This document shows, piece after piece, positions 3,769 through 52,276 of a stretch of 64,000 nucleotides of DNA. Numbering within the stretch: the first letter of the stretch is position 1; each line of letters starts with the position of its first letter. Under the pieces are notes generated by a model. It was not told where the DNA came from. It did not search any database and was given only the letters and a program-made list of their open reading frames with translations. The DNA is from an uncultured Acidobacteriota bacterium (GTDB lineage: Bacteria; Acidobacteriota; Vicinamibacteria; Fen-336), in NCBI GenBank assembly GCA_963720545.1, contig OY970399.1:3936001-4000000 (forward strand). Direction: 5' to 3'. The translations under genes were made by a program, and so were the position numbers.

Positions 3769-4197
3769 ATGGCGCCGGCGAAGAAGAAGGCCGCAAAAAA
3801 GCGGACCGCGACCAAGGCGTCGCCGAAGAGGCAACCGGCAGTGAAGGCCTCGACCGCGCTCGTCGCCATGCGCCGGATCTGCCTGAGCCTGCCGGACACC
3901 ACCGAGACGCTCACCTGGGGCCAGCCGCACTTCCGCGTCGCTGACAAGATCTTCTCCGGCTGCGGCGATGAGAAGGGCCGCCTCACCATCGGCTTCAAGC
4001 TCGAGATGGAGCACGCCGCGGCGATCCTTTCCGACCCGCGCTTCACGCGCGCACCGTACGTCGGCCGCTACGGCTGGGTGTCGATGGACGCGAGCCAGGT
4101 GGACGACTGGAAGCAGGTGGAGATGCTGGTGCGCGAGAGCTACTCGCTCATCGCGCCCAAGGCGAGCGTCGCCAAGCTGCGCCGCTCGCAACCTTGA
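3769..4197 (+). CDS. MmcQ/YjbR family DNA-binding protein with Lys/Ala-rich N-terminal tail
   Basis: RBS GAGGAG before ATG 3769; CLSLP..ETLTWGQPHFRV.DKIF and APYVGRYGWV...LVRESYSLIAP patterns. Confidence 0.85.
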   Translation: MAPAKKKAAKKRTATKASPKRQPAVKASTALVAMRRICLSLPDTTETLTWGQPHFRVADKIFSGCGDEKGRLTIGFKLEMEHAAAILSDPRFTRAPYVGRYGWVSMDASQVDDWKQVEMLVRESYSLIAPKASVAKLRRSQP

Positions 4198-4298
4198 GCG
4201 TTTCCTGAGCGAGCACTGAAGACAGCAGCGGCGGCATCGCCGTATCTTCTCCGCAGGTTGATCGCGTTGATCGGCTCTCCCTCCCAAGGAGAAACGCC

Positions 4299-47010: not shown

Positions 47011-48918
47011 GTGACGAGGCCGCTCTCTCCCGCGTACATCACCACCCCCATCTACTACGTGAACGACGTGCCGCACGTCGGCCACGCGTACACCACGATC
47101 GCCGCCGACGTGGTCACGCGCGCGCGCAAGCTGCGCGGCATCGACGCCTTCATGCTGACGGGCACCGATGAGCACGGCCAGAACATCGAGCGGGTGGCGC
47201 GCGAGCGCGGCGTGAGCGAGCAGCAGCATAGCGACGAGATCGCGGCGAAGTTCAAGGCGCTCTGGGCACGGTACGACATCGCCTACGACGGCTTCATTCG
47301 CACCACCGACGACCTTCACCGCCGCGGCGTGCTGAAGCTGTGGGACCGGCTGGTGGCCGCGAAGACTCCGGACGGACGGCCGGCGATCTACACCGCGATG
47401 TACTCCGGCTGGTACTGCTCGCGCTGCGAAGCCTTCTACGACGAGGAGGAGCTGAAGCAGCCGGGCAACGTCTGCCCCGACCATGAACTGCCGGTGGAGT
47501 GGACCGAGGAGGAGAACTACTTCTTCCGCCTCTCGGCCTACTCCGCCTGGCTGCGCGACGAAATCGTCTCCGGCCGCATCGCCATCGAGCCGCAGGTGCG
47601 CAGGAACGAAGTGGTGTCGCTCATCGACCAGGGGCTGCGCGACTTCAGCGCCAGCCGCGCGCGCGTGAAGTGGGGCATCCCGGTGCCGGGCCAGCCCGAC
47701 CACGTCCTTTATGTATGGATCGACGCGCTCTCGAACTACATCACCGCGCTGGGATTTGCCGACGACGCGCCGCTCTACGAGCGCTACTGGAATGGCGACG
47801 GCGAGCGCATGCACCTCGTCGGCAAGGACATCATTCGTTTCCATTGCCTCTATTGGCCGGCGGTGCTGCACGCCGCGGGCGTGAAACCGCCGAATCGCAT
47901 CTTCGTGCAGGGACACATCACGAAAAACGGCAAGCGCCTGTCGAAGACCACCGGCAACGTCATCGACCCCGATGCGCTCGTCACCCAGTACGGCCCCGAT
48001 GCGGTGCGCTATTTCCTGATGCGCGAGGGCACCTACGGGCACGACTGGGACTTCACCGACCAGGCGTTCATCACCCGTTTCAACGCCGACCTCGCGAACG
48101 ACATCGGCAACCTGGTGTCGCGTGTCGTCACCATGGCGCACCGCTTCGGCGGCGGCGCCGTGCCCGTGCAGGGGGCAGCCAAGGCTTCGCTCGACGCCGA
48201 GGCCATCCTCGACCGCTACGAAGCGCTCGATTTCTCCGGCGCGCTCACCGACGTCTGGGCCGCGGTCGCGAAGCTCAACCTGCGCATCGTCGCCAGCGAA
48301 CCCTGGTTGATGGCGAAGGACGCCGCACGCCGCGGCGACCTCGACGCGCTCCTTTATGAACTGCTCGAGGGCGTGCGCCAGGTCGCGTTGCTGGTGTCGC
48401 CCGTGATGCCGCGCGCGTCCGAACGTATCCTGGCGACGCTCGGCGCCGCGACGCCGCGTACGCTCCCGTGGGGCGGGCTCGTTGCGGGCGCCGCACTGGG
48501 CGAAGTCCAGCCACTCTTTCCGAGGTTAGAGAAAATGACCGAAGCCGCGCCGCCCGCCGCTGCCGCAGTTCCTGCCGCCCCGGCAGCAACCGATGGGCGC
48601 ATCGACATCACCGACTTCACCAAGGTGGACCTGCGCGTGGCTAAGGTCCTCGCCGCCGAGAAGATCGCGGGCTCGAAGAAGCTGGTGCGGCTGCAGGTCG
48701 ACCTTGGCAGCGAACAGCGGCAGATCGTGGCCGGCATTGCGGAGGCCTATGAGGCCGAGGCGCTCGTCGGCCGCACCATCATGGTGGTGGCGAACCTCAA
48801 GCCGGCCAAGCTCATGGGTGTCGAATCGAACGGCATGGTGCTGGCCGCGTCGGTGGACGGCAAGGCGGTCCTCTGCGGGTTCGACAAGGACGTGGCTCCC
48901 GGCACCAAGGTGAAGTGA
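47011..48918 (+). CDS. metG: Methionine--tRNA ligase with C-terminal tRNA-binding domain
   Basis: YITTPIYYVND.PHVGH, GTDEHG, YVWIDAL, GKDIIRFH, ANLKPAKLMGVESNGM. Confidence 0.96.
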   Translation: MTRPLSPAYITTPIYYVNDVPHVGHAYTTIAADVVTRARKLRGIDAFMLTGTDEHGQNIERVARERGVSEQQHSDEIAAKFKALWARYDIAYDGFIRTTDDLHRRGVLKLWDRLVAAKTPDGRPAIYTAMYSGWYCSRCEAFYDEEELKQPGNVCPDHELPVEWTEEENYFFRLSAYSAWLRDEIVSGRIAIEPQVRRNEVVSLIDQGLRDFSASRARVKWGIPVPGQPDHVLYVWIDALSNYITALGFADDAPLYERYWNGDGERMHLVGKDIIRFHCLYWPAVLHAAGVKPPNRIFVQGHITKNGKRLSKTTGNVIDPDALVTQYGPDAVRYFLMREGTYGHDWDFTDQAFITRFNADLANDIGNLVSRVVTMAHRFGGGAVPVQGAAKASLDAEAILDRYEALDFSGALTDVWAAVAKLNLRIVASEPWLMAKDAARRGDLDALLYELLEGVRQVALLVSPVMPRASERILATLGAATPRTLPWGGLVAGAALGEVQPLFPRLEKMTEAAPPAAAAVPAAPAATDGRIDITDFTKVDLRVAKVLAAEKIAGSKKLVRLQVDLGSEQRQIVAGIAEAYEAEALVGRTIMVVANLKPAKLMGVESNGMVLAASVDGKAVLCGFDKDVAPGTKVK

Positions 48919-50303
48919 CGAAGGGGTACCGCTTCGGCTCCTTCGAGCTGTCGCTCCGGAGCCGCACGCTCACGCTCGCGGGCTTGCCGGTGCCGCTCAT
49001 CCCGCGCTACTTCGACCTGCTCGCGCTGCTCATCGCACGCCGCCACGAGGCGGTCCACCGCCGCGACATCCACCGCATCGTGTGGAGCGACGTGGTGGTG
49101 TCCGACGGCGCCCTCAGCCAGGGCATTCGCATCCTGCGCCGCGCGCTCGGCGACGTCTCGCGCGAGCCCGCCTACATTCGCACGGTGTCGCGCCACGGTT
49201 ACCAGTTCGTCTTTGCCGACGTTCGCGTCCTGGGTGACGATGATGCCGACGCCGGCCCCGCAGCGGTCACCGCCGCTCCGCGGCCGGCGCCGGAACCCGC
49301 AGACCGCACCGCGCGCATCGAGGCGGCGCTCGCGACCCTCACGGGCGCCTCGCCGGCTCCGGCCGACGGCCAATCGGACGCGGAACGCCGGCGCGACGCC
49401 GCCGAGACGCTGCACGCGCTCGGCACGTTGGAGGCGCTCGCGCGGCTGGGAACGCGCGCCGGCCACCAGCGCGCTCGTGCGCTCTTGCGCGACGTCCGGT
49501 GGGAAATGGCCGGCGCCGGCGACGTGCCGCTCTTGGGCACGCCCGGCATGTTGGGAACGGTGGCCCACCTGCTGCGTTTGCGCGTGGCGCGAGCGAGCGA
49601 AGCGGCGGCCCGGCGGTGGGCGAGCGCGGCACTCGGCGGGGCGCTCGCCGGCTTGCTCTCCGGCGCGATCGGCGGCACCTTGCTGTGGCTGGGACCGCAA
49701 TCGACCGCCGGTCCCAGCGTGCCTTTGGTGCTCGCCTGCATCGGCGCCTTCATCGGCGGCCTGGGCGCCGCCGGAATTGGCGCCGGGATCGAAGCCGCCG
49801 AAGTAGCCGTCCGCTCCAATCGCCGCCTCGCGGTGGTGATCCTCGGCGGCCTCGGCGGGGGCATCGTCGGCGCCGCCGGGCACCTGGTGGCGCTCGTCGC
49901 CCTGCAGGGAGTCTTCGGCCGCGACCTTTCGCCGGTCGGCGGCGGCATCGAGGGCCTTGGCATCGGGCTCGGCGCGGCCTTCGGCTATGCCCTCAGCACC
50001 CCGCGAGCGGGCGGCGGTCTGGCCGCGCCAAGCGGCGGCGCCCGCCTGCGCACCATGCTCGTCACCGGCATCTTCTGCGCCCTCGCCGCCTTCCTGCTGG
50101 CGGCTCGCGGCCGGTACCTGGGCGCCATGAGCCTCGACCTGCTGGCGCACGCCTTTGCCGGCTCGCAGGTAGGGCTCGAACCACTGGCGCGGCTGCTCGG
50201 CGAGGCCGAACCCGGAACCAGGACCCGCCTGCTGGTGAGCACCGGCGAGGGGTTGATGCTCGGCGCCGGCCTCGCTTTCGGCGTCACCCGCCGTCCGCGC
50301 TGA
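48915..50303 (+). CDS. One-component regulator: OmpR/CadC-type winged helix fused to a Gly-rich multi-pass membrane domain
   Basis: YRFGSFEL, VWSDVVVSDGALSQGIRILRRALGD, YIRTVSRHGYQF; no receiver domain; several C-terminal hydrophobic helices. Confidence 0.85.
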   Translation: MTKGYRFGSFELSLRSRTLTLAGLPVPLIPRYFDLLALLIARRHEAVHRRDIHRIVWSDVVVSDGALSQGIRILRRALGDVSREPAYIRTVSRHGYQFVFADVRVLGDDDADAGPAAVTAAPRPAPEPADRTARIEAALATLTGASPAPADGQSDAERRRDAAETLHALGTLEALARLGTRAGHQRARALLRDVRWEMAGAGDVPLLGTPGMLGTVAHLLRLRVARASEAAARRWASAALGGALAGLLSGAIGGTLLWLGPQSTAGPSVPLVLACIGAFIGGLGAAGIGAGIEAAEVAVRSNRRLAVVILGGLGGGIVGAAGHLVALVALQGVFGRDLSPVGGGIEGLGIGLGAAFGYALSTPRAGGGLAAPSGGARLRTMLVTGIFCALAAFLLAARGRYLGAMSLDLLAHAFAGSQVGLEPLARLLGEAEPGTRTRLLVSTGEGLMLGAGLAFGVTRRPR

Positions 50304-50333
50304 CTGCTCACCGCCTGCTCACCGTTCGCTCAT
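50304..50333 (+). promoter_or_regulatory. Triple 11-bp-periodic direct repeat (cre-tag-like) upstream of yjbQ-creD
   Basis: CTCAC(50307)-N6-CTCAC(50318)-N6-CTCAT(50329); CTGCTCACCG repeated exactly at 50304 and 50315. Confidence 0.7.
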
Positions 50334-50380
50334 GACTTTTCGGGCGCTTTGGCCCACCTTCCGCAGCCAACGGAGGATTC

Positions 50381-50866
50381 ATGAGCCAGGTCATCAGCGC
50401 GTTCCGGCGGACGGCGTTCGCCGTGCGGAACAGCTTCATAGACGTCGCCAGCACCCGTCCCGACGAGGTCATCGAGATCACCGACCGCCTGCGCCGCGAG
50501 GTGGACGTCCTGCGGCTCGTGGACGGCGTCCTCAACGTCCAGACGCTGCACACCACCACGGGCGTCATCGTCAATGAGGATGAGCCGCTGCTGCACGGCG
50601 ACCTCTCGGCCCTGTTCGAGCGGCTGGCGCCGCGCGCCGGCTCTTACCACCACGATGACCTTGCCCGGCGCACCGTCAACCTGACCGACCGCGAGCGCCG
50701 CAACGGCCACGCCCATTGCCGGGCGGCGCTGCTGCCAAGCGCCGTGGCGATCAACGTCGTCGAAGGCGCCCTGGTCCTGGGCCGCTGGCAGCGCATCCTG
50801 TTCATGGAGCATGACGGTCCGCAGCAGCGGCGGCTCTCGGTCGTCGCGATGGGAGAGGTGCGATGA
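50381..50866 (+). CDS. yjbQ: YjbQ / UPF0047 family protein
   Basis: GGAGG RBS; HTTTGVIVNE, Y.HDD, NGHAH, LGRWQRI...EHDGP. Confidence 0.9.
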   Translation: MSQVISAFRRTAFAVRNSFIDVASTRPDEVIEITDRLRREVDVLRLVDGVLNVQTLHTTTGVIVNEDEPLLHGDLSALFERLAPRAGSYHHDDLARRTVNLTDRERRNGHAHCRAALLPSAVAINVVEGALVLGRWQRILFMEHDGPQQRRLSVVAMGEVR

Positions 50867-52224
50867 GCGCCACCGATGCCACGCCATCCGTCCTCAACAG
50901 CTGGTGGTGGCTGAAGGGCTTCCTCATCGGCGCGCTGATGCTGGTGCTCGCCATCCCGCTCGCGATACTGCGCAGCCTGGTGGGCGAACGGCAGGCGCGC
51001 GCCGCGGAAGCGGTGGTCGAGATCGCGCGCTCCTCGAGCCGCGCGCAGAAGCTGACCGGGCCGTTCCTGGTGGTGCAGGAGGAGCTCACCTATCGCAACC
51101 TCGAAGCGACGAGCGAGGGGGGGCGAGACCGCACCGTGACCAAGGACCATGTGCAGGCGCGGCGCACCCTGGTGGCGCCGGCGATGCTGAAGATGGAGGG
51201 CTCGCTCAAGAGCGAGGTCCGGAGGCGCGGTTTGTTCTCGGCTGCGCTCTATCACGCAACCCTCACCGCGCAGGCCCGCCTTGCCATGCCGGCACCGCCG
51301 GCGCTCGGCAGCGAGCTGGTCGCGTACCGCGTCGCTTCGGTGCGTCTCGAGATGGGCCTCGGCGACACGCGCGGCGTCGAGCGGCTGGATGTGCGGATCG
51401 ACGGCCGCGAGCTTCCAGCCGAACCTGGAAGCGTCCTTCCGTGGCTCGGGGAAGCGGTGCACGTTTCGCTGCCGCCCGAGTTGTGGAAGCCGGCCGCGCT
51501 CGAGTGCGACCTCGCGCTCGAGCTGACCGGCACCGAGAGCCTCGCGGTGGTGCCGCTCGGCGGCGACAACGACGTGGCGCTGCGCAGCGACTGGCCACAC
51601 CCGGCTTTCGGCGGCAACTACCTGCCGGTGACGCACGAAATAGCGAAAGACGGGTTTCGCGCGCACTGGAAGGTGTCACGGCTCGCGAGCCAGGCCGGGC
51701 AGCAGCTGAGCGAGTGCGGTGCCAGCGCCACGTGTGCGTCGCTCGACAACGCGGCGTTCGTCGTGCGCTTCGTCGATCCTGTCGATCGCTACCTCAAGAC
51801 CGACCGTGCGATGAAGTACTCGATGGTGTTCCTGGTGCTGGTGTTCGGGGCGGTCTTTTTCATCGAGGTGCTGCGGCGCGTCACGGTGCACCCGATGCAG
51901 TACGTGCTCACGGGCTTCGCCGTTGCCATTTTCTTCCTGCTGCTGCTGTCGCTCGCCGAGCATGTCGGCTTCGGTGCAGCGTATGTGGTGGCGGCCGCGG
52001 CCTGCGTGGTGCTGATCGCCTCCTACATGAGCGCCGTCCTCGGCACCACCGCCGCCGGCTGGGGTTTCGGCGGGTTTCTCGCAGCACTCTACGGTCTCCT
52101 CTACGGCGTGCTGCAGTCGGAGGACTACGCCTTGCTCATGGGAACGCTCACGCTCTTCGGGTTCCTGGCCTTCATCATGATCGCGACGCGCCGCCTCAAC
52201 TGGAGCCGCATGGGGCGCAGCTAG
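50863..52224 (+). CDS. creD: Cell envelope integrity inner membrane protein CreD
   Basis: ATGA overlap; WPHPAFGG.YLP, DRAMKY, VHPMQY.L.G, LLLSLAEH, EDYALLMG, TRRLNW. Confidence 0.94.
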   Translation: MSATDATPSVLNSWWWLKGFLIGALMLVLAIPLAILRSLVGERQARAAEAVVEIARSSSRAQKLTGPFLVVQEELTYRNLEATSEGGRDRTVTKDHVQARRTLVAPAMLKMEGSLKSEVRRRGLFSAALYHATLTAQARLAMPAPPALGSELVAYRVASVRLEMGLGDTRGVERLDVRIDGRELPAEPGSVLPWLGEAVHVSLPPELWKPAALECDLALELTGTESLAVVPLGGDNDVALRSDWPHPAFGGNYLPVTHEIAKDGFRAHWKVSRLASQAGQQLSECGASATCASLDNAAFVVRFVDPVDRYLKTDRAMKYSMVFLVLVFGAVFFIEVLRRVTVHPMQYVLTGFAVAIFFLLLLSLAEHVGFGAAYVVAAAACVVLIASYMSAVLGTTAAGWGFGGFLAALYGLLYGVLQSEDYALLMGTLTLFGFLAFIMIATRRLNWSRMGRS

Positions 52225-52276
52225 GCGGGCGTCGTCCCGCTACCGGCTCGCGAGGCCGTCACGCTAAGTTAACCGC

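Follow-up and report, generated by a model that had tools for sequence, protein, structure and literature searches.

Membrane-bound one-component regulators are an already known class of transcription factors. ToxR, CadC and TcpP (PMC10269533, PMC5430869; PDB 8b4b, 5ju7) are described as carrying an N-terminal OmpR/PhoB winged helix, no receiver domain, a membrane anchor and tandem sites near the promoter, and regulators with three or more helices are reported to make up 27% of the known class (PMC10269533). A different arrangement is represented by CreBC of Escherichia coli, Aeromonas, Pseudomonas and Stenotrophomonas, a two-component system with a kinase, a receiver, an 11-base-pair (bp) repeat ending in CAC and creD as a target. 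Here we describe a locus in a 64,000-nucleotide window (the whole stretch analysed, contig OY970399.1, positions 3,936,001 to 4,000,000) of an uncultured Acidobacteriota bacterium, where a membrane regulator of 462 amino acids (aa), a three-unit repeat and the genes yjbQ and creD follow one another. The sequence-only reading of this window had proposed that a single membrane-embedded protein replaces CreBC, reads a cre-tag-like operator and ties YjbQ to envelope stress. The genome analysed is a single contig of 4.09 megabases (Mb) with 68.7% guanine plus cytosine (GC) and is 94.8% complete. The sensor domain, the defined operator, the STAND-containing forms and the payload common to CreBC and to a pair built around an HTH_34 protein are new here, and the literature searched contained no description of the membrane domain, the operator or the regulon.

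The regulator (48915..50303, +) very probably controls the yjbQ-creD promoter. Three CTCAY units with an 11-bp period occupy 50307..50333 (+), with CTCAC at 50307 and 50318 and CTCAT at 50329, the first unit standing 4 bp past the regulator stop. The repeat noticed in the sequence-only reading proved to be real: the exact triple occurs a single time in the 4.09-Mb genome, and the window holds one match with at most one mismatch vs 0.02 expected from shuffles. CTCA triples in the genome number two at period 11 vs one in total at the other periods from 7 to 19.

Comparison across relatives points the same way. Homologues of the part of the regulator that does not bind DNA were collected (371), and the family was found in 98 of 251 genomes of the class, about two of five in an abundant soil class; the named relatives with such loci are almost all Acidobacteriota, many of them Vicinamibacteria. 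TCA-N8-TCA lies no more than 90 bp from the regulator stop in 90 of 165 complete loci (74 as a triple), compared with at most 8 pairs and 1 triple at other periods (7-10, 12-16) in the same set, which includes near-duplicates. Altogether 139 sites were counted, in 136 of 179 loci. The first gene behind them was yjbQ in 90 cases, a CreD-like gene in 15, uppS in 8 and a beta-lactamase-fold hydrolase in 4; the operons held the B12 radical-SAM gene 48 times, UppS 23 times and DUF2236 4 times, with beta-lactamase-fold hydrolases counted as targets 7 times. The core target is yjbQ together with the B12 radical-SAM enzyme and not creD, which the earlier reading had put at the centre of the output; full-length creD is rare in the lineage. 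Where the gene following the regulator was a target gene, 109 of 113 loci had a profile site; where it was any other gene, 7 of 38 did. Sites face divergent CreD-like or uppS operons (L054, L070, L072, L080, L100) and stay with yjbQ where inserted genes have displaced it (L069, L081).

As far as sequence comparison can tell, regulator and repeat element co-occur across genomes, including targets in trans. Out of 55 class genomes with a radical-SAM match, the 30 best loci were examined: those from regulator-bearing genomes exceeded 14 bits in 21 of 24 cases and 7 bits in 23 of 24, whereas regulator-free genomes gave 0 of 6 over threshold. A profile-free version of this comparison returned 21/24 vs 1/6. 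Six radical-SAM loci carry the site on a contig other than that of the regulator, and the long STAND forms have the same repeat in the same register before radical-SAM and uppS genes.

The repeat appears to be part of a conserved promoter, in which the last unit overlies a poor -35 and a -10 follows after a 17-bp spacer. In the window, a putative weak -35-like ATGACT (50332..50337, +; family consensus AAGACT/ATGTCT/AGGACT) overlaps the last unit and would be followed 17 bp later by a -10-like CACCTT (50355..50360, +), xAxxxT in relatives; a sigma-70 promoter scan of this window promoter gave no match, both hexamers being poor. Alignment of 106 distinct sites on the repeats alone yielded three to four (G/T)CTCAC units, the last of which reads TCA or TGA followed by NGACT, with an A and a T 26 and 30 bases on. 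After realignment, 107 of 113 distinct sites had xAxxxT at a distance of +25/+26 from the last TCA, in columns that formed part of the profile. Lower-GC loci of the STAND form carry TAGAAT, TAGAGT or TAAATT exactly at +25. A profile trained without the window site ranked that site top in the genome (41.9 bits, next 18.3), and reversed and complemented controls reached at most 4.2 bits.

This spacing is shared with known promoters. In the E. coli phoB promoter, which has two repeats, the -10 stands at +25 from the first, and a TATCCT hexamer is found at +25 from a third TTCA copy in front of E. coli creD, so that this geometry belongs to winged-helix activation generally. Description of the repeat as cre-tag-like did not hold, because CreB-linked promoters in the same bacterial family use TCCAY and the 11-bp TCA geometry is common to other promoters of the genome analysed.

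The domain order read from the letters was confirmed throughout. Trans_reg_C covers residues 25-98 (E 3e-13), and Pfam and NCBIfam searches of the 462-aa protein revealed no other domain over the Pfam cut-off and no receiver domain. An OmpR/PhoB-fold winged helix of the CadC/ToxR-like subgroup (48924..49220, +; residues about 4-102) leads into a cytoplasmic HEAT-like helical linker seen in the structure model (49296..49610, +; residues about 128-232) and then into a Gly-rich membrane domain (49611..50285, +), for which hydropathy, the structure model and the positive-inside pattern predict six helices with both ends inside. Two conserved glutamates, E346 (49950-49952, +) and E445 (50247-50249, +), are placed within the membrane. 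The AlphaFold model of this domain has a predicted local distance difference test (pLDDT) score of 92, and its comparison with known folds gave no clear match.

ToxR, CadC and TcpP are the best structure and tree neighbours of the regulator, with which they share the features named above, the membrane anchor here being predicted. As the earlier reading had noted, the regulator nevertheless departs from them. ToxR and CadC have one helix and a periplasmic sensor, whereas the protein described here has six predicted helices, a short C-terminus and no periplasmic domain (36.7 with the CadC model vs a cut-off of 400), and it differs further in its HEAT-like linker, its nSTAND1-bearing homologues, its operator and its regulon. 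The winged-helix tree groups it with CadC/ToxR-like proteins, outside the response-regulator clade. Descent of the winged helix from CreB was considered separately, and a joint clade with CreB was rejected by the approximately unbiased (AU) test (p=0.0046; 30 of 41 rows, with 11 redundant or long-branch rows left out).

Longer homologues carry an inserted nSTAND1 (PF20703) nucleoside triphosphatase (NTPase), in the order winged helix, nSTAND1, HEAT, membrane domain; the window protein lacks this module. STAND sensors usually lie C-terminal, where the long homologues carry the membrane domain. HEAT_2 matches to the linker are weak (4 of 71 members) and occur also in long STAND forms, where the HEAT-like linker recurs after the NTPase. 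Membrane-bound factors of this type, 873-942 aa long (L199:10391-13207, L200:11015-13843, L201:9650-12271), occur in 3 of 301 genomes of the phylum, oriented divergently to radical-SAM and uppS genes. In the Atlas, proteins of Planctomycetota and Bacillota contain predicted look-alikes of this membrane domain (template-modelling (TM) score about 0.5) joined to VWA, FHA and trypsin-like domains; these are a lead only.

We favour, with slightly better than even confidence, the overall explanation that a CadC/ToxR-type inner-membrane regulator binds the CTCAY repeats and activates the yjbQ-creD promoter upon an envelope signal. Such a regulator would be made at a steady low level, because no operator precedes it and its GTG start overlaps the stop of metG (GTGA; metG at 47011-48918, + direction). 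It would span the inner membrane six times, with E346 and E445 lining the pocket in which it senses. Oligomerisation, as reported for CadC (PMC5430869), would line up three to four winged helices head to tail along the repeats, where they could contact sigma-70 region 4 at the -35 and recruit polymerase. The trigger may be a disturbed envelope, in particular a disturbed polyprenyl lipid-carrier cycle, upon which the weak yjbQ-creD promoter would be switched on. That cycle is the best guess on account of the payload, which includes a second cis-prenyltransferase, an oxygenase-like DUF2236 protein and a B12 radical-SAM enzyme that is likely a methylase; a vitamin or metabolite is the second candidate signal. 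That the protein acts as an activator rather than a repressor appears likely, and the balance tips modestly towards envelope or lipid-carrier disturbance as the signal. The envelope-stress link proposed earlier is suggested by the kinds of genes that occur together, with UppS, CreD-like proteins, beta-lactamase-fold hydrolases and DUF2236 among the targets. For the known system, colicin M, which cuts lipid II, is reported to induce the E. coli CreBC regulon (PMC3599342), and this regulon is reported to include CbrA, which saturates the alpha-isoprene of undecaprenyl phosphate (PMC8469651). Loss of creD in Stenotrophomonas maltophilia has been described as impairing envelope integrity (PMC4689548).

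Several observations weigh against this explanation. YjbQ and the B12 radical-SAM enzyme, the two commonest targets, have no known envelope role, and YjbQ is presented in a preprint as still without a clear function (bioRxiv 10.64898/2026.06.26.734693). The presence of creD does not fix the signal, since in S. maltophilia CreBC is reported to repress this gene instead of activating it, and beta-lactams do not induce it (PMC4689548). Radical-SAM and uppS-paralogue partners were not found in the window's genome. Sites are missing at three CreD-like genes of genomes that do have the regulator (G003, G007, G024), G014 has a double repeat only, and the distant f3 genomes G027 and G029 have weak sites or none. 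G471, a genome in which the regulator was not found, has a single CTCAC pair and no -10. G018 keeps two repeat sites with a regulator reduced to a 32-residue remnant. The counts are not independent, as the genomes are related, and many adjacent loci were in the training set of the profile. The locus in G018 (L264:2530-3350) consists of a kinase fragment ending in the regulator's last 32 residues, then the operator and yjbQ, and is either a broken gene or an assembly chimera.

A broader proposal is put forward tentatively and is somewhat doubtful: the membrane domain, with or without the STAND switch, would read the polyprenyl carrier itself and control an ancient protection module of CreD, second UppS, B12 methylase and YjbQ. 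Bacteria would place this module under any of three controllers that can stand in for one another, namely the activator, CreBC and the HTH_34 pair, each acting through a separate operator. The carrier lipid would be modified by the B12 enzyme and by YjbQ, much as it is by CbrA in E. coli. It is rather unlikely that the membrane domain instead binds a vitamin or cofactor (B12, thiamine or flavin) in the manner of the S-component of an energy-coupling factor (ECF) transporter, with a metabolic regulon devoted to lipid methylation or cofactor salvage.

Repression, in which the regulator would cover the -35 until a signal releases it by intramembrane proteolysis or conformational change, seems improbable. 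The -35 is overlapped by the last repeat and ToxR-type proteins are reported to be able to repress (PMC6733452); however, the repeats extend upstream from the -35 and the hexamers are poor, which fits an activator-dependent promoter, and the HTH_34 alternative has another layout with a palindrome near the gene start. Another winged-helix protein, be it a response regulator or any of the genome's six further one-component proteins, might read the repeat, with the membrane gene as a mere neighbour; we consider this very improbable. The genome does contain 15 Trans_reg_C genes and 12 intergenic promoters with the 11-bp T[CG]A geometry and a -10 at +25/+26, and G018 retains its sites beside a mere remnant. 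Most of these other promoters have CTGAG units, however. In genomes that yielded no regulator, the radical-SAM gene has no CTCAY element in front of it, and the element is kept beside short and STAND forms alike. Least probable of all is the strict form of the sequence-only reading, a CreB-like domain on a new sensor that reads a cre-tag with creD as core output: CTCAC-N6-CTCAC differs from the reported TTCAC-N6-TTCAC (PMC4689548) by one base per unit and the E. coli creD promoter shares the 25-bp spacing from its third TTCA copy to TATCCT, but the tree position and the AU test given above, the TCCAY operators of acidobacterial CreB loci and the scarcity of full-length creD (1 of 41 related genomes, 1 of 179 loci) speak against it.

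The favoured activator has in common with CreBC a winged-helix regulator, an 11-bp repeat ending in CAC and creD as a target. A scan for CreB that took in the 8 OmpR-type response regulators of the genome found none over the NCBIfam cut-off (NF008296 best 204 vs 273 bits; CreC was not searched), and the only exact cre-tag TTCAC-N6-TTCAC of the genome, at 3872679, is not before creD. Three genomes belonging to the same bacterial family have CreB (G005, G011, G393; 2 of 251 in the class sample), and the membrane regulator was not found in these, G005 being only 68% complete. In G005 and G393, creBC stands before the same CreD-like gene, whose promoter is of the TCCAY type without a CTCAY site. 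As CreB-bearing relatives lack the regulator and two of the three have creBC beside the same CreD-like family, functional substitution is plausible; the regulator likely substitutes for CreBC in function, and the three cases, all from related genomes, are no more than suggestive. Replacement of CreBC, as proposed earlier, is retained as likely in function, with the family existing and no CreB found. CreBC has a kinase and a receiver, whereas the regulator has neither and is not CreB-derived. The two also differ in operator (CTCAY vs TTCAC or TCCAY) and in the main targets, which here are yjbQ and the B12 radical-SAM gene. CreBC-linked CreD-like promoters carry 11-bp TCCAY/TCCGC repeats, a cre-tag variant (L248:2250-2390, L263:7868-7960).

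The same payload is found with the HTH_34 (PF13601) pair (Bacteroidota NZ_CP111045.1, Aureimonas NZ_CP006369.1, G453), which likewise sets a membrane component beside a winged helix and shares the radical-SAM enzyme (66% identical), creD and the uppS paralogue. That pair consists of two separate genes and a palindrome near the gene start, with probable repression, whereas the regulator described here is one protein. The palindrome ACTTT-N7-AAAGT was present in all 6 regulator-free radical-SAM loci and in 0 of the 24 from regulator-bearing genomes, and also before creD and uppS in HTH_34 loci of Bacteroidota (on a plasmid) and Aureimonas; it is likely the operator of the pair. On the Bacteroidota plasmid, creD precedes the same radical-SAM gene, with the membrane protein and HTH_34 in front, and in Aureimonas the palindrome lies before uppS, behind the membrane protein and the HTH_34 regulator. 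The pair was not found in the window's genome, and the literature searched contained no description of pair or palindrome. Palindrome sites were recorded at L287, L293, L298-L301, L194:5394 and 6365, and L268:6981. In Aureimonas, the uppS paralogue is followed by a gene of the linalool dehydratase/isomerase family, which is isoprenoid-modifying (L268:7684-9612).

Both predicted target genes of the window match their families over cut-off. The yjbQ gene (UPF0047; 50381..50866, +) matches PF01894 and exceeds the TIGR00149 cut-off, its HTT, GHAH and EHDG motifs with the conserved His/His/Asp-Glu residues are intact, and a ribosome-binding site GGAGG can be read at 50372..50376 (+). It overlaps creD (50863..52224, +) by ATGA, in line with the translational coupling noted earlier. 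The creD gene is of the full-length proteobacterial type, its PF06123 match (E 2.5e-134) spanning the full length over cut-off, with NF008712 over cut-off as well. It stands where most relatives carry the B12 radical-SAM gene, which it likely replaced on entering the operon. Nine relatives have a divergent form only; the window creD has six close sequences (58-96%), its next named relatives are Xanthomonadales-type (48-54%), and its GC content at third codon positions (GC3) is unremarkable.

Judged from these comparisons, the regulator likely switches on cell-envelope genes that are run elsewhere by CreBC or a small repressor-type protein. A one-protein sensor with defined operator and start-site geometry offers a simple reporter for finding the CreC signal. 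The occurrence of one payload under three unrelated controllers links CreD and YjbQ with a second UppS and with an orphan B12 radical-SAM enzyme and gives testable substrates, the polyprenyl phosphates. The membrane domain would be a new, well-modelled sensor module that also occurs in membrane-bound STAND transcription factors.

Further elements were observed in the window and genome. A second promoter class, in which 11-bp repeats of mostly CTGAG units end on a GAC-containing -35, was found at window 4181-4250 (+) and at genome 905504, 1532689, 1673030, 3271616, 3324112 and 3325590; by period, this class gave 12 sites (all intergenic) at 11, 1 at 10 and 29, mostly coding, at 12. A second yjbQ paralogue lies at genome 3388160-3388675, where the operator is absent among profile matches. 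Between creD and the gene of a 782-aa sulfatase, a short GC hairpin without a T run occupies window 52225-52276. A second CTCAY triple (L193, genome 1911038-1911067, -) precedes a 234-aa, probably exported protein and adjoins a convergent winged-helix gene; without the -10 pattern and below 11 bits, it is a possible weak second target.
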